DNA of 64,000 nucleotides from sequence record MZ681930.1. The stretch is one strand, 5' to 3'. Of this stretch, positions 24,399-52,382 are shown in pieces. The DNA comes from Enterobacteria phage phiC600P9. The translations under genes and the position numbers were made by a program. The notes under the pieces are model-generated. The model saw only the letters and a program-made list of their open reading frames with translations, did not search any database and was not told where the DNA came from. Within the stretch, counting starts at the first letter, position 1; every line of letters starts with the position of its first letter.

Positions 24399-24432
24399 TT
24401 TATTCTCCAAATCCGTATCAGTTGATAGTTGT

Positions 24433-24462
24433 ATAGTACCATGGAAGAACAGGGATGTAAAT
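24433..24462 (-). promoter_or_regulatory. early promoter (ATTTAC-N18-TGGTACTAT)
   Basis: plus strand atagtaccatggaagaacagggatgtaaat. Confidence 0.45.
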
Positions 24463-43527: not shown

Positions 43528-43848
43528 TTATAGCGTAATCCATTCTCGTATTGTCTGAGTTACTACACGTTCACGGGGCTCGACTAGTTCAACAGTCGGA
43601 ACTGCATAATACCAGTCAGAATGGTAAGAACCTGAGCGAGATTCATTTACAGACACATGAACGTTATGTTTTGGACTAAAATAAACGCACTGCCGATATT
43701 GGCATTTGCCATCTTGTACCCAATCTTCTATTTCGACAGGTTTAAGATAATCCGAAAAATCGAAATCATAATTTTCTGAAAATGCATCATGGTCTTCGAT
43801 GATTTCACTCAGAACTGCATCAACATCTAATTTATTTTCAATAGTCAT
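43528..43848 (-). CDS. hypothetical protein
   Basis: 106-aa ORF. Confidence 0.5.
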   Translation of the reverse strand: MTIENKLDVDAVLSEIIEDHDAFSENYDFDFSDYLKPVEIEDWVQDGKCQYRQCVYFSPKHNVHVSVNESRSGSYHSDWYYAVPTVELVEPRERVVTQTIREWITL

Positions 43849-44508: not shown

Positions 44509-44799
44509 TTATTCCTTAATTCCTAGTACTTGTTTAAAAGTCTCGTCATAATCAAGACTTTGGCCAGTTTGTTCTTTATGTTTGTATATAATATCACTTA
44601 CTTCTGATAGCATATTTTTATATGAACGAGTTAAAGCAGATTTAAGCACGCTGTATCTATCAGGAAATTTACCATGTTCATTATAATAAGCTATTGCTAA
44701 TTCACGGACTGCCTTTTCAGCAGTCTCCATATATTCTTTACGCTTGGTCATTTTCTTCTCGGTTAAATCGGTGTTTGCAATGACGACATTTATATTCAA
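44509..44799 (-). CDS. hypothetical protein
   Basis: 96-aa ORF. Confidence 0.5.
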
Positions 44800-45055
44800 G
44801 CTCTGGTTTACGCCAGTTAATCAATTGGACCTGTTCAGTACCACATTTTGGGCAGTTCGGAACATTCTTAGAAGCCCTTTCGCGGCGTTCAACCATAACC
44901 ATAATGGCATCCCAAGCAGGAGGTTTAAAGTCTAGATCGTCACAGCCATGAATCTTTCCACGCATTTCCAGATCGTCTTCTTCACCAGCCATAATGATTT
45001 TAATTAGACTGGAATTACTTGAAGCTGCAATATCTTCTAATAGACGCTTTTTCAT
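44738..45055 (-). CDS. zinc-ribbon protein
   Basis: 105-aa ORF with CPKCG...CRHCKH. Confidence 0.5.
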
Positions 45056-45978
45056 TTCAATACCTCAATAGCATTACGTAAACCATTTGCTTTTGCATTA
45101 AGAGCTTTTAACAATTTGGTATGTTCGGCAATCTGGACTTCAACTTCAATCAAACGAGCATTGAGATATTCACGTTCTTCGCTCAAGTTATCAATCTTTT
45201 CTACTTTAGGTTCTTTTACAACTGGCTTATATGTATTAGGGTTCTTCAGTTTAATTAGAATGCGTGAACTGTATAACATTGAACCATTATCTTCGGTTTC
45301 GTCATACATTTCCACTACGTCCATCATCTCCACCATCGTGCAGAGTTTATAAGACAACGAACGAATAGTTTTGTTGTGCTTATTAATTTCTCTAGCTGTC
45401 ATGGTGCCGAGATTACGTGAGTAATAATAAGGAACCTGGATATTAATTAATACTGATGAACCACCCGGCTTGTGTGTTACTTCATCGGCAATAACCCAGT
45501 CCTTAACATGAACTGTATTTGTACGGTCATCGCCCGCGGTAAATAGTTTACGAGCATGCTTAAAAAGCATATTCACTTGGTCATTGAATTGACAAGCGAA
45601 TTTATCAGCAAATTTAGTTTCAGGAATGGTAGATAACCAATCAGCCAAATGAGTCTTTTTAACATCGTTAACAATAGTAAATTCAACCAAATCGGTTATA
45701 GATGTCGCAGATTTAATGAAGCTCGGCTTCATAAAGTTTTTAATGTTATCACTAGCTACAGTAGAAGATAACAGACGAGAACGTTTAAACCATTCAAGCA
45801 AATTGCCTAACGAATGAGAATAAGCGTTTTGAGTATCTTTACAGATATGATTTTCCTGGCCAACATATTGAAGGAAATCGCGAAGAATATTATTGATTAC
45901 TGCTCTGTGCCCGATCTGATAATTACGATGTTTAGTAATAAGACTGTCAAAATAATCAATATAATGTTTACGAGTCAT
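45052..45978 (-). CDS. hypothetical protein with C-terminal coiled coil
   Basis: track ORF 45052..46008 extends into the promoter; MTRKHYIDYF is the likely start. Confidence 0.5.
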   Translation of the reverse strand: MTRKHYIDYFDSLITKHRNYQIGHRAVINNILRDFLQYVGQENHICKDTQNAYSHSLGNLLEWFKRSRLLSSTVASDNIKNFMKPSFIKSATSITDLVEFTIVNDVKKTHLADWLSTIPETKFADKFACQFNDQVNMLFKHARKLFTAGDDRTNTVHVKDWVIADEVTHKPGGSSVLINIQVPYYYSRNLGTMTAREINKHNKTIRSLSYKLCTMVEMMDVVEMYDETEDNGSMLYSSRILIKLKNPNTYKPVVKEPKVEKIDNLSEEREYLNARLIEVEVQIAEHTKLLKALNAKANGLRNAIEVLK

Positions 45979-46007
45979 ATTAATCTCCTCAGTAGAAAGT
46001 AAGAACA

Positions 46008-46036
46008 TTATACCACATCCTTGTGGTAAAGTAAAC
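46008..46036 (-). promoter_or_regulatory. early promoter (GTTTAC-N18-TGGTATAAT), near-identical copy of the rIIA.1 promoter
   Basis: plus strand attataccacatccttgtggtaaagtaaac. Confidence 0.55.
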
Positions 46037-46494
46037 TAGTTCAGTGCATTTAGTGCATTGTTCAGTTTAGAACGTTGTTTCATAAGATTTTTGACTTTTT
46101 CTTGAGCTTTTTCTAGCATCTTTTCAGCTTCTAACACTTCATTAGTTGCTTTAACCAGTTCATCATCTACTGCTTTAAGAGAATTCTCAATCGCATCTGC
46201 ATGCCATTTTTCAACAGGTTTAAGACTCGGATTTTCAACAGGAAGAAAATTCACTTTATTGAATTTCCATGCATCCTTATTACCTGAACTATACATCCAA
46301 AATTTAGGATCGTTTGATGAGTAATTGGATAAATTTAAATTTAAGTTATCTTGCACTTCTTGCTTTTTCTCTTGCGCGACTTCATCCTTTCTCAAAAAAT
46401 CGTATTTAAATGAAACGATCATATCAAGTTCATATGTTGTTGTGTCTAATAAACGAGGTAAAATCTTAGACTGAACAGCGGCAACAACAGTCAA
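46036..46494 (-). CDS. hypothetical protein with C-terminal coiled coil
   Basis: 152-aa ORF. Confidence 0.5.
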   Translation of the reverse strand: MTVVAAVQSKILPRLLDTTTYELDMIVSFKYDFLRKDEVAQEKKQEVQDNLNLNLSNYSSNDPKFWMYSSGNKDAWKFNKVNFLPVENPSLKPVEKWHADAIENSLKAVDDELVKATNEVLEAEKMLEKAQEKVKNLMKQRSKLNNALNALN

Positions 46495-46501
46495 CTGCGA
46501 T

Positions 46502-47032
46502 TTAAGGCATTCGCAAATTGAAAGAGAATTTTTTTGTATTAGGTTTAAAGCTAATTCGTGCAGTTCTGTTATTTTCTTTTAATGGTCTTACTTCCATCTG
46601 AAGAGTATAACCATCAAATTTCAAGTTCTTTAAGTTAATATCAGAACCTTTTAATCGACTCGCAGTTGATAAAATTTGCTTTAATTGTCTACGGAACAGA
46701 GCAATAAATCTCCATTCAATACGATAATGATTTGGATTGAAAAATCCAGATGATAAATCGACCTTACTTTGACCAACGCCTTGAACAAATAAAGGATTTT
46801 TATAATCAATAGTTTTACAGAAATCGGTGAGCTGCTCACGAGCCGTCATTTGTGTAATATACCCTGCTTTACTAAAATTACGCACCCATTCACTGCTATT
46901 CGTATACTTAAAGTGATGAATAACACGATTAACTTTATCAGGGTCTAAATTATTTTCACACAAAAATGTCATAACATCACGAGTATAACTGGCATTACGA
47001 ACCATATCTTCAATTTGAGAACGAGTTTTCAT
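46502..47032 (-). CDS. hypothetical protein
   Basis: 176-aa ORF. Confidence 0.5.
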   Translation of the reverse strand: MKTRSQIEDMVRNASYTRDVMTFLCENNLDPDKVNRVIHHFKYTNSSEWVRNFSKAGYITQMTAREQLTDFCKTIDYKNPLFVQGVGQSKVDLSSGFFNPNHYRIEWRFIALFRRQLKQILSTASRLKGSDINLKNLKFDGYTLQMEVRPLKENNRTARISFKPNTKKFSFNLRMP

Positions 47033-47040
47033 GGTGTTCC

Positions 47041-47967
47041 TTAAGATTTAAGTAAATCAACAATTTTAATTAACTTTTCACGCTCAGATTTAGCTTTACT
47101 ATTCAGTCCAGATAGTCTGAAAATTTCATCATCATATTGTTGAATAGAAATATTCAGCTCTTCAATTTGCTTATTAAAATAATCAATTTGTTCAGAATGT
47201 TTTTCGTTACTACGAACTGGTACAGGTTTCGTAGGCAATGTAGTTGAACTGGATTCATCCGGGCGATAAATCAAAATGCAATTTGAACCAATCGGGCATT
47301 TAGCACCAGACGTATATTCTAATGTTCCAGCTTCTTTTAAAACTTCAAAAGCTAAACAGAGATGATGCCCCATATTAACATAATATGTAGAGTGAGCTCT
47401 GATGTAATAATCATCTCCACGAATACTAAATTTAAAGCATTTAAGGTCTTCTGTATTATTGGTCTTAAAAATCATTTGTTTATCTAGACCTTTAGCTAAT
47501 CGAGCGCCCAATGCTAATAATCGTCGTTGATTTTCCCACAAATCCGCTATCATTTGATCGAATGATAATTTTGGCATCAGTCGACCATAAAGGTCATATC
47601 CTTTATTATAATTACGAAGGATTTCACTCGCGTTAATACGAGACAATGCTCCAATTTTATTAAGGGCTTTCATAATGCGATTAGATAAACTCATTCCAGA
47701 CCCATTTGTTCGATGTAGATGTTTTTCTAATCCAAATCCAATATCAACTTTAAACTTATCTAAAATTTCGGCATGAACATCTCTGTCAATAACATTCAAA
47801 TTCAGAGTTGAGTTAAATCTATGAAAAAATTTATCTGGCTCTCCACGGCGAAATACAGTCCATTCATTCATCATTTTTTTATTAACTAAAGATTTAATTA
47901 CTGCATTGACATTATTAATTACTACTGACATATTTTCCTCACTCAATTTCAATTTTACTAAATACAC
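47041..47967 (-). CDS. hypothetical protein with C-terminal coiled coil
   Basis: 308-aa ORF. Confidence 0.5.
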   Translation of the reverse strand: MYLVKLKLSEENMSVVINNVNAVIKSLVNKKMMNEWTVFRRGEPDKFFHRFNSTLNLNVIDRDVHAEILDKFKVDIGFGLEKHLHRTNGSGMSLSNRIMKALNKIGALSRINASEILRNYNKGYDLYGRLMPKLSFDQMIADLWENQRRLLALGARLAKGLDKQMIFKTNNTEDLKCFKFSIRGDDYYIRAHSTYYVNMGHHLCLAFEVLKEAGTLEYTSGAKCPIGSNCILIYRPDESSSTTLPTKPVPVRSNEKHSEQIDYFNKQIEELNISIQQYDDEIFRLSGLNSKAKSEREKLIKIVDLLKS

Positions 47968-48346
47968 AGAATATGATTGAACAGACTACATAAGCGCCAC
48001 ACACGGATTGAACTAATACCATCCCAAAGAACCAAACAATATTATCAAACAGTGTCTGTTTTACGTCGAAAGGACGTAAACTTACAGTAATATTATCACC
48101 TTTTTCTATTGAAGAATACATCTCTGGGGAAATATATTCACTAAATCTATAACCGTCTTTAAGTTCATATACGGCAATAAACGATAAACTAGACCCTTTT
48201 CCTTGTGTTCCTGTAATGGTATTAACTACAGTAACATCATAATCTTTATAATGCATATAATCATTAATTGCGTAATAACCGTATGCAACTACTACACATA
48301 AACAACATATCAATAAATTCAATCTTTTAATTATCAACTGTTTCAT
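47939..48346 (-). CDS. membrane protein
   Basis: 135-aa ORF with TM segments at both ends. Confidence 0.5.
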   Translation of the reverse strand: MKQLIIKRLNLLICCLCVVVAYGYYAINDYMHYKDYDVTVVNTITGTQGKGSSLSFIAVYELKDGYRFSEYISPEMYSSIEKGDNITVSLRPFDVKQTLFDNIVWFFGMVLVQSVCGAYVVCSIIFCVFSKIEIE

Positions 48347-48401
48347 AATAATCTCAATTAAAAGGGCTTAGAACCATTATACCATCCTTGGTATAAAGCG
48401 G

Positions 48402-48929
48402 TTATGCGAGTACCGTCTTTAACCGTTCTTCAAACTTCCGAAGAGTATTTTGGCGTTCAGCTCTTTGCTTTTTGTAAGTTTCAATACGCTCTGAAATGAG
48501 AGTGTATCGTTCATTTACTGATTCTTTCATAAAATCAGGAATTTCACGAGAAGCTTTAATCTCGTCAAATTTATCAATAACAGCTTGCTCTTCAGCAATT
48601 AAGTTATCATACATTAAAATATCTTTCTTGATGAACTCAATATCTTCTCGAGTTACACGAGATAATTTAGATGCTTTATCCTTTTTGTACTGTTCGTTAG
48701 TATCACGAGACCAGTGTAATGTACGATTTTTATTCGTATTTTTGTAAATTTCGACAATACCAATCTCATCAATAATAACGATCCAATTCCAACGGGATTT
48801 GTAAATTTGTCCTCCATCAACTGTGATTTCACCTCCGATTGAGATGTCATTAAAGAACTTGCTTTGTGCTTCAGATTTAAATTTACCATCGTTGTAATTT
48901 ACCAAGTTGAAAATATCTTTAGCATTCAT
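48402..48929 (-). CDS. hypothetical protein with C-terminal coiled coil
   Basis: 175-aa ORF. Confidence 0.5.
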   Translation of the reverse strand: MNAKDIFNLVNYNDGKFKSEAQSKFFNDISIGGEITVDGGQIYKSRWNWIVIIDEIGIVEIYKNTNKNRTLHWSRDTNEQYKKDKASKLSRVTREDIEFIKKDILMYDNLIAEEQAVIDKFDEIKASREIPDFMKESVNERYTLISERIETYKKQRAERQNTLRKFEERLKTVLA

Positions 48930-48957
48930 TTTGTGTTCCTCCGTAGTTGATAGTTGT

Positions 48958-48987
48958 ATAGTACCACAGAGGAACAGTCTTGTAAAC
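48958..48987 (-). promoter_or_regulatory. early promoter (GTTTAC-N18-TGGTACTAT)
   Basis: plus strand atagtaccacagaggaacagtcttgtaaac. Confidence 0.5.
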
Positions 48988-48989
48988 CA

Positions 48990-49304
48990 CTAAAAGAAAC
49001 TTCTTTCACAATTTTTTCCACTGAACCATGCGCTTACTGCTTTCTTAGTCTCAGGAGCAGTGTTATCCATAAACCATTCAAAGGCAGCCTTTTTATGATT
49101 CTGGAGGGCTTCTCGGGCTTTAATCTGCTCACGGTCTATTAACACTAACATATGAGCCTTTCTTGTCACCAGGGGCTTCTTATGATTTTTTGAATATTCC
49201 CAATCATTTGTCCATCGCATCGTTGTTGCGAACTGAAATACTGCTTCTTTAATTTTAGTTTCGTAAATTTCACGAGCCTTTGAGTATAACATCATTACCT
49301 CCAT
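48990..49304 (-). CDS. hypothetical protein
   Basis: 104-aa ORF. Confidence 0.5.
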   Translation of the reverse strand: MEVMMLYSKAREIYETKIKEAVFQFATTMRWTNDWEYSKNHKKPLVTRKAHMLVLIDREQIKAREALQNHKKAAFEWFMDNTAPETKKAVSAWFSGKNCERSFF

Positions 49305-49394
49305 TTACCAGTTTAATTCTAGTCATCTTTTTAACGGCAGTCCATATAATCTATTTCTGAACTGCCTTTTTGTCTTAGAAGGCCTCTTATGAAT

Positions 49395-50375
49395 TTATTT
49401 CAGAAGAGTAACCTCAGCGATTTCTTGCCAACCGTTTTTGTCGGTCATAATAAAGTCAGCAAGATACAGAGCAGTACGCAGTGAAACATTGCGTAAACGA
49501 TTAACATTGACTTTCATCCATGATAATGCTTTATAAGTTTCTTCATCAGAAAGACCGCGCTTTTGCATCATGTCGGTTGAAAGAATAACATCTTCAACCC
49601 TGACCATAATTTCTTCATTAGTGTGAACACCCAAATCCAAATAAACTGAGCGGGACACTAATGCTTGTAAATGTGGAGCAAGTTTAGTACCACGGTCTAA
49701 TTCGCGGTCAATGTCAACGTTTGTGATAAAAACAATCGTTCCTTTAAATTCAAACTCACGCTCAATGCCTTTTTCTTCTAAGTAAGAAGATGCGGTGCTC
49801 CAGCAGACTTTACGGGTCTCTCCAGTGTCCAGAGCAGCTTTCAGAAGATTAAGAATGTCCATATCAGAGAAAACATCCACATCATCAATCAAAAGGACAG
49901 AATTCTCTTCACGATTATTCCAAAGCTGTTCATAAAGACCGATACCAGAGATTTTACCATTAATGCTTTTATATTCAATGTATCCATTATCATTTGCTTT
50001 ATTCAAAGCTTTATCTAAAGAATACGTTTTACCAATACCCGCCGCACCAGAGATAATTAATGAACGAATATTTCCGTTAATAATACCATTCGTCATCATT
50101 CCCATAACATTAAATCTTTTATTAATGCGGGTTTTCATATCTTCATATGATTCTTTAACTTCTTCAACTTTTACACCATCATATGAAATGTCTGATTTGT
50201 AAACCCAAACACCGCGACGCTTACCGTCAATTTCAACAAAAACTTTACCATCTCCTTGTGCATCTACCGGAGCATTATCTGGGAACCATTCACCTAAGAG
50301 CTCAAAAGTTCCAGAGATTTCTTTACCGAAGTAGATACCCTTATTGATAGTTACAGTTTTCATTTTATTCTCCAA
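49395..50375 (-). CDS. P-loop AAA-type ATPase
   Basis: 326-aa ORF; Walker A GAAGIGKT, Walker B LLIDDVD. Confidence 0.6.
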   Translation of the reverse strand: MENKMKTVTINKGIYFGKEISGTFELLGEWFPDNAPVDAQGDGKVFVEIDGKRRGVWVYKSDISYDGVKVEEVKESYEDMKTRINKRFNVMGMMTNGIINGNIRSLIISGAAGIGKTYSLDKALNKANDNGYIEYKSINGKISGIGLYEQLWNNREENSVLLIDDVDVFSDMDILNLLKAALDTGETRKVCWSTASSYLEEKGIEREFEFKGTIVFITNVDIDRELDRGTKLAPHLQALVSRSVYLDLGVHTNEEIMVRVEDVILSTDMMQKRGLSDEETYKALSWMKVNVNRLRNVSLRTALYLADFIMTDKNGWQEIAEVTLLK

Positions 50376-50399
50376 TTTTACATTTGTTTTGATAGGGTA

Positions 50400-50429
50400 A
50401 TAGTATCACACTACTACCCTGCTGTAAAC
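50400..50429 (-). promoter_or_regulatory. early promoter (GTTTAC-N18-TACTAT) with overlapping inverted repeat
   Basis: plus strand atagtatcacactactaccctgctgtaaac; agggta...taccct flanks the -10. Confidence 0.45.
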
Positions 50430-50432
50430 AAT

Positions 50433-50696
50433 TTATTTTAATGTTTGCCAAATTTTTACTGCTTCGCGACGAGATACTTCTACGGCGCCAAGTTCTATAG
50501 CTTTTTGGCGTCGCCGAGCGTGTAAGTCATAATGTTTAATGCGTTTATCTTGAAACCAAGAACGTTTCATTCCTATTGCTTCTGCCATTTCGTGAAGCTC
50601 TTCAATATCTCCATCAGTGAACATATGACAATTTTTAGTTGGATGACCGCGAAGTTTCCATCCATGATTCATTAAAACATCTACGTAAACTGTCAT
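50433..50696 (-). CDS. small hypothetical protein
   Basis: 87-aa ORF. Confidence 0.5.
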   Translation of the reverse strand: MTVYVDVLMNHGWKLRGHPTKNCHMFTDGDIEELHEMAEAIGMKRSWFQDKRIKHYDLHARRRQKAIELGAVEVSRREAVKIWQTLK

Positions 50697-50888
50697 TGAT
50701 TCTTCTCCAAATAAGTTTCGATAATTTTCTGGGCGAGATAAACCGCGTTATCTTCAGTTGCGTCTTCTAAGAAACTTTCAAAACACTCTGAAATTTCTTC
50801 TGTATCAATCAACTTTTTTACTTCAATTGGTGTAATTTTCATTTTGTTTTCCGTTTAAGTGTTTGTTTTGATAGTTGTATAGTACCAT

Positions 50889-50913
50889 AAGGGAGCCCGA
50901 AGGCTCCCTATCA
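50889..50913 (-). promoter_or_regulatory. UUCG-tetraloop RNA hairpin at the 3' end of the nucleotidyltransferase gene, abutting a TGGTACTAT -10
   Basis: taagggagcccgaaggctccctta-like inverted repeat. Confidence 0.5.
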
Positions 50914-51924
50914 TTTATAATAACTTCGGTGGTTTTCAAGATAGACCTTCTCAAGGAAGTCATCCCAGAAACCCATGTCCACTTTTTGCTGCATACCGTT
51001 CTTAGAAGCTTCAGTAGATGCTGCTTCTACTTGATCGACCACATCTTCCAAAAACTCTTGAACCGTTTTAAATGGATGTTTACCAAGCTTCACGTCGAGA
51101 ATAAATGGAGCGTCTTGGAGTGGATAGACTAAGTCACCAGTTTTGTAAATTTCCAATAGTTGGAGTCCACCACGACAAGCATGACTCAGAGCTTTCCAGT
51201 CAATACCCTCATTCGCTTCAGCCTTACGAGCACGTTCGCCGTATTCAGCATCTAATTTGTTCAGTGACTGCTTAAGCTCAATAAGAGAAAGTGTTGTCTG
51301 ATATTTACGACCCAACACGGTATAAAACGTTTGTGGGCCTGTTTTCTCATGATTATGGAACACCCATTCACAGAATTCGTTTTCTGGAAGACGATGCTTA
51401 ATATCTTCAACTTTAGTACGACGCTGCTTAATGGAACCGTCTTCTTGGTAATCAACCCATTGCTCAGGGATTTGATTAACTACTTTCAATACATCACGTA
51501 ATGCAGCCAAACGAGAACCCTTGACACCGTATTTAGAAGCTTGCTTACGGACATATCCTAAATAGGATTTCATGTTAGTCGTATAAAAACGAGAACGGTT
51601 GTCTTGAACAAACTTCCACACATCAGGCAAATCAGATTTAACCACTAGTTCAGGTGGAGTGTGAAGCATATCCAATGCTACAGTTTCACCATCTGCTGCT
51701 AATTTAAAGAAATACTTAAGACTATACAATTCGTGGTCAATATCATCTTTAGTGTTTTTAGATGATGTGTTGTTAGTGTTTTTACTCATATGCTCTTTAA
51801 CATTTCCAATAAGAATATCACGAGCAGGAGGAACAAAGATTTCTTTAAAATCTACATCAGATTCTGGAGTAGAAGTTCCATAAAGATGACTACCAAAATA
51901 GCTTTTCATTACTGTTTTCATCAT
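50911..51924 (-). CDS. predicted nucleotidyltransferase (Pol-beta superfamily)
   Basis: 337-aa ORF with N-terminal hG[GS]-x10-DxD signature (FGSHLYGTSTPESDVDF). Confidence 0.55.
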   Translation of the reverse strand: MMKTVMKSYFGSHLYGTSTPESDVDFKEIFVPPARDILIGNVKEHMSKNTNNTSSKNTKDDIDHELYSLKYFFKLAADGETVALDMLHTPPELVVKSDLPDVWKFVQDNRSRFYTTNMKSYLGYVRKQASKYGVKGSRLAALRDVLKVVNQIPEQWVDYQEDGSIKQRRTKVEDIKHRLPENEFCEWVFHNHEKTGPQTFYTVLGRKYQTTLSLIELKQSLNKLDAEYGERARKAEANEGIDWKALSHACRGGLQLLEIYKTGDLVYPLQDAPFILDVKLGKHPFKTVQEFLEDVVDQVEAASTEASKNGMQQKVDMGFWDDFLEKVYLENHRSYYK

Positions 51925-52382
51925 TCAGCCTTATATTCAATAACAGGACATACTTTAGCTTTACGCGCTTTTAAAAATTCGACGATAATAGATTTCTTGG
52001 GTTGAATAGGAGGTAAACCTTTATACGCCCTATCAATATTTTCTGCGTGTAAAGCATAATCCTTTTTCCATTTATAATCTTTATATTTTTCACGCAGTTG
52101 TGCAGGAATAACAAATGAACCGATAATAAGTAAAACAAGCAAAATGGCAAGTATAAATGCTGATGGAATAAGAGTCCATAAACTACCAAAAATAAGCCAT
52201 TTCTGTATGATTTCTGCGCAGATGATAGTTAGACCTACGAGTATAGTACATCCGAAAAAAGAAACGAAAAATGTAGGGATAACAATAGACCAAAAGTATG
52301 CGCACAGCGTCTTAGGTCGTTGCCATTCATCGTTAAACAATTTGAATAATTTATAGTGCCAAGAGTTTTCATTAATAATCAT
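51921..52382 (-). CDS. membrane protein
   Basis: 153-aa ORF with three or more hydrophobic segments. Confidence 0.5.
   Translation of the reverse strand: MIINENSWHYKLFKLFNDEWQRPKTLCAYFWSIVIPTFFVSFFGCTILVGLTIICAEIIQKWLIFGSLWTLIPSAFILAILLVLLIIGSFVIPAQLREKYKDYKWKKDYALHAENIDRAYKGLPPIQPKKSIIVEFLKARKAKVCPVIEYKAE

Follow-up and report, generated by a model that had tools for sequence, protein, structure and literature searches.

The question raised by this locus is whether a compact run of co-oriented early genes in a T4-like phage encodes one molecular machine or a set of separate accessory proteins. The genes occupy positions 45052-50375 of a stretch of 64,000 nucleotides (nt) from Enterobacteria phage phiC600P9 (sequence record MZ681930.1), which we call the window. 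The original prediction, made from the nucleotide sequence, described eight consecutive open reading frames (ORFs), including four proteins with C-terminal coiled coils, a membrane protein and an AAA-type ATPase, and proposed either a functional module or unrelated accessory genes. Our analysis makes it likely that the block is the nrdC.3-nrdC.10 segment of the variable pin-mobD region, and that its members are individually dispensable early genes which act separately rather than as a multi-subunit machine. Four genes of this region in T-even phages, nrdC.3, nrdC.4, nrdC.5 and nrdC.6, appear to be divergent paralogs of a single phage-only, possibly new, family.

The 5.3-kilobase (kb) stretch is 100% identical, with matching coordinates, to record MT630408.1 (Enterobacteria phage phiC600P9) and 96-97% identical to hundreds of Tequatrovirus genomes. 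Gene names were assigned using the annotated phages ime09, PD112, SA20RB and T4. The features of the coding part of the block, all on the minus strand, are listed below, with the identity of each product to its T4 counterpart.

45052-45978, minus strand: nrdC.3, 308 amino acids (aa), with a C-terminal coiled coil (phrog_1435, E 5e-116); 61% identical to T4.
46036-46494, minus strand: C-terminal fragment of nrdC.5, including the coiled coil (Pfam DUF7235 positions 159-307, E 5e-49); 84% identical to T4, in the other frame.
46502-47032, minus strand: N-terminal fragment of nrdC.5 (DUF7235 positions 1-140, E 1e-57); 100% identical to T4.
46529-46535, minus strand: A7 homopolymer run carrying a +1 insertion in nrdC.5 (DNA alignment with PD112).
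47041-47931, minus strand: nrdC.6, 296 aa (phrog_2257); 96% identical to T4.
47939-48346, minus strand: nrdC.7, 135 aa, predicted membrane protein with two transmembrane segments (hydropathy; phrog_2547); 90% identical to T4.
48402-48929, minus strand: nrdC.8, 175 aa, with a C-terminal coiled coil (ortholog of Bas37_0203); 98% identical to T4.
48990-49304, minus strand: nrdC.9, 100-104 aa, DUF7203 (Pfam E 3e-15); 100% identical to T4.
49395-50363, minus strand: nrdC.10, 322 aa, AAA+ ATPase (motifs, AlphaFold2 model and Foldseek); 99% identical to T4.

All eight of the predicted ORFs are present at their coordinates, but those at 46036-46494 and 46502-47032 are the two halves of nrdC.5 (84-100% identical to the T4 protein, in two frames, and matching the two halves of DUF7235), so that the block consists of seven genes, one of them broken, and not of eight. 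Three of the listed starts lay too far upstream and have been moved to 45978 (nrdC.3), 47931 (nrdC.6) and 50363 (nrdC.10). For nrdC.3 the ATG at 45978, which lies behind a GAGGAG ribosome-binding site, was preferred to that at 46008 because the latter overlaps a -10 box.

The comparison with T4 nrdC.1-nrdC.11 that had been recommended gives an ortholog for each ORF (nrdC.3 and nrdC.5-nrdC.10), in the order found between nrdC and nrdC.11 in T4 and ime09, with nrdC.4 missing. Gene order, strand and promoters are those of the corresponding T4 segment (GenBank AF158101, 48933-55320), and the nrdC.6-nrdC.10 proteins are 90-100% identical. The phiC600P9 block differs from it in four respects: a crossover between nrdC.4 and nrdC.3, in 8-9 bp at their 5' ends, has removed nrdC.4; nrdC.5 carries a frameshift and is 7 aa short; nrdC.3 is a divergent allele; and a DUF4031 gene and a 49-aa ORF lie between nrdC.11 and nrdC.10. 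The block is already known, and the new points are limited to the family relationship among nrdC.3, nrdC.4, nrdC.5 and nrdC.6 and to gene decay in phiC600P9.

The components of the block do not co-occur across genomes. The number of phage records containing each gene, among 50,697 phage genomes, is as follows.

nrdC.11: 1517 records
nrdC.10: 1311 records
nrdC.6: 741 records
nrdC.8: 741 records
nrdC.3: 653 records
nrdC.4: 554 records
nrdC.5: 529 records

We also mapped, gene by gene, 37 loci surrounding nrdC.10 homologs (61-99% identity). nrdC.10 is constant in these and nrdC.11 lies directly upstream in about 33 of them. nrdC.3-nrdC.8 are confined to the 13 T-even-like loci, the nrdC.9 cluster is present in most of the 37, and nrdC.7 changes position, or is absent, in other T4-like loci. 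In these other loci the 4-7 kb separating nrdC.10 from nrdC hold different small ORFs and usually one protein of 300-390 aa. The nrdC.10-nrdC segment has thus been rebuilt repeatedly. Further afield, the nrdC.10 homologs of three phages (one of the Ackermannviridae, one jumbo phage and one Vibrio phage) have unrelated genes as neighbours. Nor does the block look like a single transcription unit: three early promoters and a middle-promoter-like site are predicted within it from the sequence. A single machine does not fit this differing spread, the rebuilt loci, the unrelated neighbours of nrdC.10 and the multiple promoters.

The last ORF was predicted to be a Walker A/B ATPase, and this is borne out. 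The product of nrdC.10 has an N-terminal beta domain (residues 1-61), an AAA+ core (101-243) and a lid (249-319). Walker A (GAAGIGKT, G106-K112), Walker B (LLIDDVD, D160/D161), N215 (sensor 1), R238 and R291/R296 are invariant in 30 homologs; R238 and R291/R296 are read here as a putative arginine finger and sensor 2. The AlphaFold2 model (predicted local distance difference test, pLDDT, 89.6) has the AAA+ fold, with an alpha-beta-alpha core and a helical lid. All Pfam AAA matches fall below the curated cut-offs. We attempted to place the protein in an informative clade, but Foldseek against the PDB returned only generic AAA+ matches (E about 5e-6), and a sequence search of the PDB found no relative. 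The best structural matches are initiator and clamp-loader AAA+ proteins (Orc1/Cdc6, RFC and Hda), with which it has in common Walker A and B, sensor 1, arginine finger and sensor 2. It differs from these in that template-modelling scores are only about 0.4 and identity 11-16%, and in its N-terminal beta domain, which is unique. More than 1000 homologs exist, 55-79% identical across genera. nrdC.10 is, by prediction, a separate, very widely conserved orphan AAA+ ATPase and, being widespread and conserved although dispensable in the laboratory, an unexplained conserved gene. Together with nrdC.11, whose product is an RlaP-family nucleotidyltransferase (Pfam E 2e-11), it forms a pair (49395-51924, minus strand) that is adjacent in about 33 of the 37 T4-like loci, and both genes have a much wider distribution than the others of the block. 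We do not claim a functional pair: the two are no longer together in phiA8-29, CBB and D493.

What two of the remaining genes do is indicated by the literature, through sequence identity. A T4 deletion mutant regains growth on cells that carry the Dsr1 of ECOR17 when T4 nrdC.5 is expressed in trans (Srikant et al., eLife 2022, PMC9391042); DSR1 is an NAD-depleting defence protein that is overcome via T4 nrdC.5 (PMC9391042). The two fragments in the window jointly cover this gene, the N-terminal half being 100% identical, the difference being that in phiC600P9 the gene is broken. In our literature search we found neither a published mode of action of T4 NrdC.5 on DSR1 nor a solved structure. 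The second inhibitor is bas37_0203, which acts on Druantia type III (HIDEN-SEQ preprint 10.1101/2025.11.20.689424); in the gene table of the same preprint it is a gene of 528 bp at the position of nrdC.8 (10.1101/2025.11.20.689424). The nrdC.8 product is identical to the Bas37 protein (QXV82184.1) at 173 of 175 residues and belongs to the same 90% cluster in the protein database. The activity itself is known for the Bas37 protein against the Druantia III of one E. coli isolate, and nrdC.8 of the window is linked to it by sequence. Beside the block, nrdC.1 inhibits Septu (HIDEN-SEQ preprint 10.1101/2025.11.20.689424) and gp49.2 inhibits OLD, as shown for the T6 protein (PMC13096335). All of T4 nrdC.1-nrdC.11 and bas37_0196-0208 were scored as non-essential in the HIDEN-SEQ tables (10.1101/2025.11.20.689424), and nrdC.1-6 can be deleted as a block (PMC9825161).

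Because the literature shows both these inhibitors (nrdC.5, bas37_0203, nrdC.1 and gp49.2) and this dispensability, the pin-nrdC.9 segment behaves like an anti-defence island. Two of its genes within the block, nrdC.5 and nrdC.8, correspond to experimentally shown inhibitors, and its members are non-essential on a laboratory host (the HIDEN-SEQ scores and the deletable blocks) as well as variable between close relatives (presence or absence of nrdC.4, and two classes of nrdC.3). It resembles known islands (the T4 dmd-tifA-adfA anti-toxin island and anti-CRISPR loci) in being composed of small to medium-sized, early, non-essential genes with fast turnover, several of them proven inhibitors. It differs in having tandem paralogs of 300-340 aa with coiled-coil tails, placed beside a strongly conserved AAA+ ATPase. 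Orthologs of gp49.2 and nrdC.1 lie downstream of the block in the window, at 43528-43848 and 44509-44751 respectively (minus strand), and are 95% and 100% identical to those of T4.

Coiled coils were assessed using a home-made heptad score compared with 200 shuffles, the criterion being a heptad-patterned amphipathic helix of at least 28 residues. The extreme C-terminal heptad segment beats all or nearly all of the shuffles in nrdC.3, nrdC.4, nrdC.5, nrdC.6 and nrdC.8 (z = 2.4-5.5; for nrdC.3, z = 3.4 at residues 258-308). The four C-terminal coiled coils originally predicted, in the ORFs at 45052, 46036, 47041 and 48402 (nrdC.3, nrdC.5, nrdC.6 and nrdC.8), are therefore confirmed by this score. 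No segment scoring above the shuffles was found in nrdC.7, nrdC.9 or nrdC.10.

The relationship between nrdC.3, nrdC.4, nrdC.5 and nrdC.6 extends beyond their tails. With blastp, nrdC.3 and nrdC.4 are 27.7% identical over 282 aa (E 3e-14). At the level of individual clusters, hhalign gave a weak web in which nrdC.3/4 and nrdC.6 were linked with each other and with the lone proteins of 300-390 aa from other genera. The linked clusters were merged into four profiles, which were aligned both complete and in a trimmed version with the last 60 residues removed. The nrdC.6 group then matched the nrdC.3/4 group with 97% probability (E 2.3e-11 over 223 columns; trimmed, E 3.1e-9), and the nrdC.3/4 group matched nrdC.5, also with 97% probability (E 2.8e-11; trimmed, E 7.4e-7). 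The trimmed alignments are thus significant outside the coiled coil. All reversed-sequence controls gave E values of at least 0.02. nrdC.8 gave at least 0.05 against all four family groups and is not a member, and five further neighbouring clusters gave at least 0.05 against the family profiles. With hhalign on single clusters and with repeated rounds of hmmbuild/hmmsearch over 1788 local ORFs, only nrdC.6 and cluster c310, and nrdC.3/4 and cluster c116, were joined.

Structural modelling covered nrdC.6. In its AlphaFold2 model (pLDDT 77) the N-terminal domain is helical and is followed by a small strand-helix-strand domain; a disordered linker then leads to a helical hairpin at the C-terminus (residues 243-272 and 278-295). 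Foldseek of this model against BFVD retrieved only T4-like phage proteins of 300-335 aa with 10-15% identity, which are single-copy; one such cluster (c116) is in turn tied by sequence to nrdC.3/4. A nrdC.6 profile, searched with HMMER against 1.84 billion representatives, found only 14 proteins, and the distant ones share the core motif and the tail. The protein database lists PF26897 and PF26899 for nrdC.3 and nrdC.6, and an NCBIfam search gave only sub-threshold noise. The family appears to be characterised by a helical core with a motif of the type R-x-LLALGARL-x-G-x-D-K, followed by the strand-helix-strand domain, a flexible linker and the C-terminal coiled coil, with a tail ending of the type L-x-x-A-L-x-x-L-K. 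Three or four copies are present in the T-even-like loci examined and usually one in other T4-like loci.

Taken with the activity of nrdC.5, this leads us to a tentative proposal, quite possible if short of probable. nrdC.3-nrdC.6 would belong to one fast-diversifying family of modular inhibitors, together with the single protein of 300-390 aa that many other T4-like phages have at this position, just upstream of nrdC.2. Each member would have a variable head for a particular immune protein (DSR1 being the one known target) and a conserved oligomerising coiled-coil tail, and tandem duplication would have widened the host range of T-even phages. In the mode of action that we consider most likely, each paralog would use its variable globular part to bind its own target among the host defence proteins, with the coiled coil turning the inhibitor into a dimer or higher oligomer. 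Through their tie to the anti-DSR1 gene nrdC.5, its three paralogs and the one relative present in most T4-like genera make up a list of candidate defence inhibitors.

In phiC600P9 this family appears to be decaying. Intact nrdC.5 of ime09 covers the full DUF7235 model above the gathering score (E 1.4e-125). In the window the N-terminal fragment is 100% identical to residues 1-167 of T4 nrdC.5, and the C-terminal fragment, in a different frame, is 92% identical to residues 187-342 of the ime09 protein. The A7 run at 46529-46535 is A6 in PD112, where the gene is intact, and in relatives; the extra A makes the frame run into a stop codon at 46502-46504, and nrdC.5 is therefore split. The A7 allele occurs in no IMG/VR contig, and the A6 allele in three. 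The gene is in addition 21 nt (7 aa, EAFKYMD) short at about 46489/46490, through an in-frame deletion that is private when compared with PD112, whose junction has no match in IMG/VR, and which takes out a conserved motif of the type 'A-L-x-x-M-D-V-V'. We had considered that the two DUF7235 halves might be a recombinant of nrdC.5 and nrdC.4. This was ruled out, since blastp assigns both halves to nrdC.5 and nrdC.4 is simply deleted.

The deletion of nrdC.4 (333 aa, between nrdC.5 and nrdC.3 in T4 and ime09) is clean. At the junction, 45978-46036 (minus strand), the early promoter, leader and first codons of nrdC.4 are joined in frame to nrdC.3. When the junction is aligned with ime09 and PD112, the crossover falls in ACTCGTAA, 8-9 bp common to the two paralogs at codons 2-4. 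An identical junction is present in phage PD112. Loss of nrdC.4 and the break in nrdC.5 may together reflect relaxed selection on a laboratory host. Since nrdC.5 is broken, phiC600P9 would be sensitive to DSR1, yet it would be resistant to Druantia III; this is a host-range prediction that can be tested. The remaining nrdC.3 (45052-45978, minus strand) is 95% identical to that of ime09 and only 61% identical to that of T4. It belongs to one of two allele classes found among otherwise near-identical phages: in about 360 records the protein is 90-99% identical to that of phiC600P9 and in 283 it is 60-80% identical, T4 being at 61%. This dimorphism suggests allele replacement or diversifying selection.

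Other explanations have to be weighed against these readings. That the eight ORFs form one machine, in which nrdC.10 powers a complex, the coiled-coil proteins provide the scaffold and nrdC.7 is the membrane anchor, is in our view highly improbable. Its attraction is that the genes are co-oriented, tightly packed and early, that coiled coils are common in assemblies, and that the 741 records with nrdC.6 and the 741 with nrdC.8 have the same organism breakdown. However, records with nrdC.10 outnumber those with the coiled-coil genes by about 570, and they include Ackermannviridae and jumbo phages with none of the latter nearby; nrdC.7 shifts or is missing in related loci; nrdC.4 has been deleted in phiC600P9 and PD112; nrdC.5 alone in trans restores growth on Dsr1 cells; and each gene of the block is individually dispensable. 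A functional module that includes the ATPase is accordingly not supported. The main value of this check is that the block should not be read as a new machine: it is well-known T4 'dark matter'. The other option of the original prediction is closer to the mark. The genes are accessory, as judged from their T4 orthologs, separate promoters, dispensability and two distinct anti-defence roles, but 'unrelated' is not quite right, as nrdC.3, nrdC.6 and the nrdC.5 fragment, which make up three of the four ORFs with coiled coils, are probably distant paralogs. A more restricted version, in which nrdC.3, nrdC.4, nrdC.5 and nrdC.6 act jointly through their similar C-terminal coiled coils as a hetero-oligomer, that is, one multivalent inhibitor, is unlikely. 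The paralogs do have a tail motif in common, their profile alignments are collinear up to the C-terminus, and they stand in tandem in the T-even-like loci examined. Against this, most other T4-like loci examined contain a single copy, the number of paralogs varies between close relatives (nrdC.4 being lost in phiC600P9 and PD112), and nrdC.5 alone is sufficient in trans, in a phage that lacks it through a larger deletion.

For the split of nrdC.5, an assembly or sequencing error in the homopolymer, with a full-length protein made apart from the missing 7 aa, is a serious contender, although we do not favour it. The A7/A6 difference is the sole frame-breaking difference from PD112, and A7 is found in no further assembly among those searched. 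The private in-frame deletion of 21 nt, however, fits a decaying gene in a phage grown on E. coli C600 (the host given in the record). Returning to separately acting genes, with a family of paralogous inhibitors among them, several points tell against this interpretation and should be kept in mind. The link between nrdC.6 and nrdC.3/4 depends on merged profiles or on intermediates, single-cluster and iterative hidden Markov model searches having failed to make it. The common fold of nrdC.3, nrdC.4 and nrdC.5 is derived from sequence profiles, as the structural model is that of nrdC.6, and the binding mechanism and oligomeric state of the paralogs are our inference. The nrdC.5 frameshift, located as it is in a homopolymer, may be an artefact of sequencing. 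That nrdC.6 and nrdC.8 have equal record numbers and an identical organism breakdown may be a sign of coupling instead of shared descent. Finally, two genes inside the block and two next to it underlie the anti-defence label, which is an extrapolation when applied to the whole block.

The regulatory features of the block were located by scanning the window for the early-promoter pattern GTTTAC-N14-GTGR-TAYWAT, and by sequence and folding. They are as follows.

46007-46036, minus strand: T4 early promoter, GTTTAC-N14-GTGG-TATAAT, with a spacer hairpin ACCACA-AGGA-TGTGGT (pattern match).
48376-48399, minus strand: middle-promoter-like site GCTT-N14-TATAAT with a hairpin, upstream of nrdC.7 (sequence and fold; annotated as a T4 middle promoter in SA20RB).
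48958-48987, minus strand: T4 early promoter for nrdC.8 (pattern match; annotated as an early promoter in SA20RB).
50400-50429, minus strand: T4 early promoter of nrdC.10; a strong hairpin spans its spacer and -10 region (pattern match; fold z-score -4.9).

The pattern has 11 sites in the window compared with 0.02 expected, and the three in the block, which had been predicted at 46008, 48958 and 50400, all fit the T4 early consensus. They remain predictions at the sequence level. The published T4/PST early-promoter consensus is TTTACW-N17-TAYWAT (PMC2839356, PMC4122927). The promoter at 46007-46036 is that of nrdC.4 in other phages and, because of the nrdC.4 deletion, now stands in front of nrdC.3, to which it is fused in phiC600P9. 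It was also said to be a near-exact copy of the rIIA.1 promoter, and this is so: 46006-46036 and 2417-2447, upstream of rIIA.1, are identical at 30 of 31 positions, the similarity spanning only about 33 nt. Repeated early-promoter sequences with hairpins that flank variable genes recall the PeSL cassettes of T4-type phages (PMC2839356, PMC4122927). In phiC600P9, unlike these, the hairpins are inside the promoter spacer, and nrdC.4 was deleted via microhomology in coding sequence just downstream of the promoter and not via a promoter repeat. The hairpin core CAAGGATG occurs four times compared with 1.6 expected, which is not significant. An exact 19-nt repeat, GGTACTATACAACTATCAA, comprising the -10 box and transcript start, is present in three copies (0 expected), all on the minus strand, at 24422-24440, 48947-48965 and 50868-50886. 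At 50868 the repeat lies behind a strong GC hairpin, just past the stop codon of nrdC.11, and a recognisable -35 element is missing.

Several smaller points concern individual genes and their annotation. The predicted membrane protein at 47939-48346 is upheld by hydropathy, which gives two hydrophobic segments in nrdC.7 (about residues 8-29 and 103-130). Between nrdC.11 and nrdC.10, at 50433-50842 (minus strand), the DUF4031 gene (87 aa) and the 49-aa ORF form a cassette that is not in T4 or ime09, is present in PD112 and some IMG/VR loci, and elsewhere lies at another position; it behaves as a mobile element. Beside nrdC.11, T4 has the homing endonuclease MobD, while phiC600P9 has a predicted membrane protein of 153 aa of the RB69ORF104c type (51921-52382, minus strand).

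Many GenBank records attach the label 'thioredoxin' to every nrdC.x gene and 'Mur ligase domain-containing protein' to nrdC.7. Judged by sequence, which lends them no support, these labels are name-transfer errors. Owing to 'thioredoxin'-type labels, nrdC.8 has been taken as a nucleotide reductase in one 2026 paper. nrdC.6 is 275 aa long in the T4 reference AF158101 (5567-6394 of locus L047) and 296 aa (891 bp) in other T-even phages and in re-annotated T4; only the first 259 of the 275 residues align with the protein of the window. On this alignment, the short T4 version suggests an error in the reference or a strain difference.

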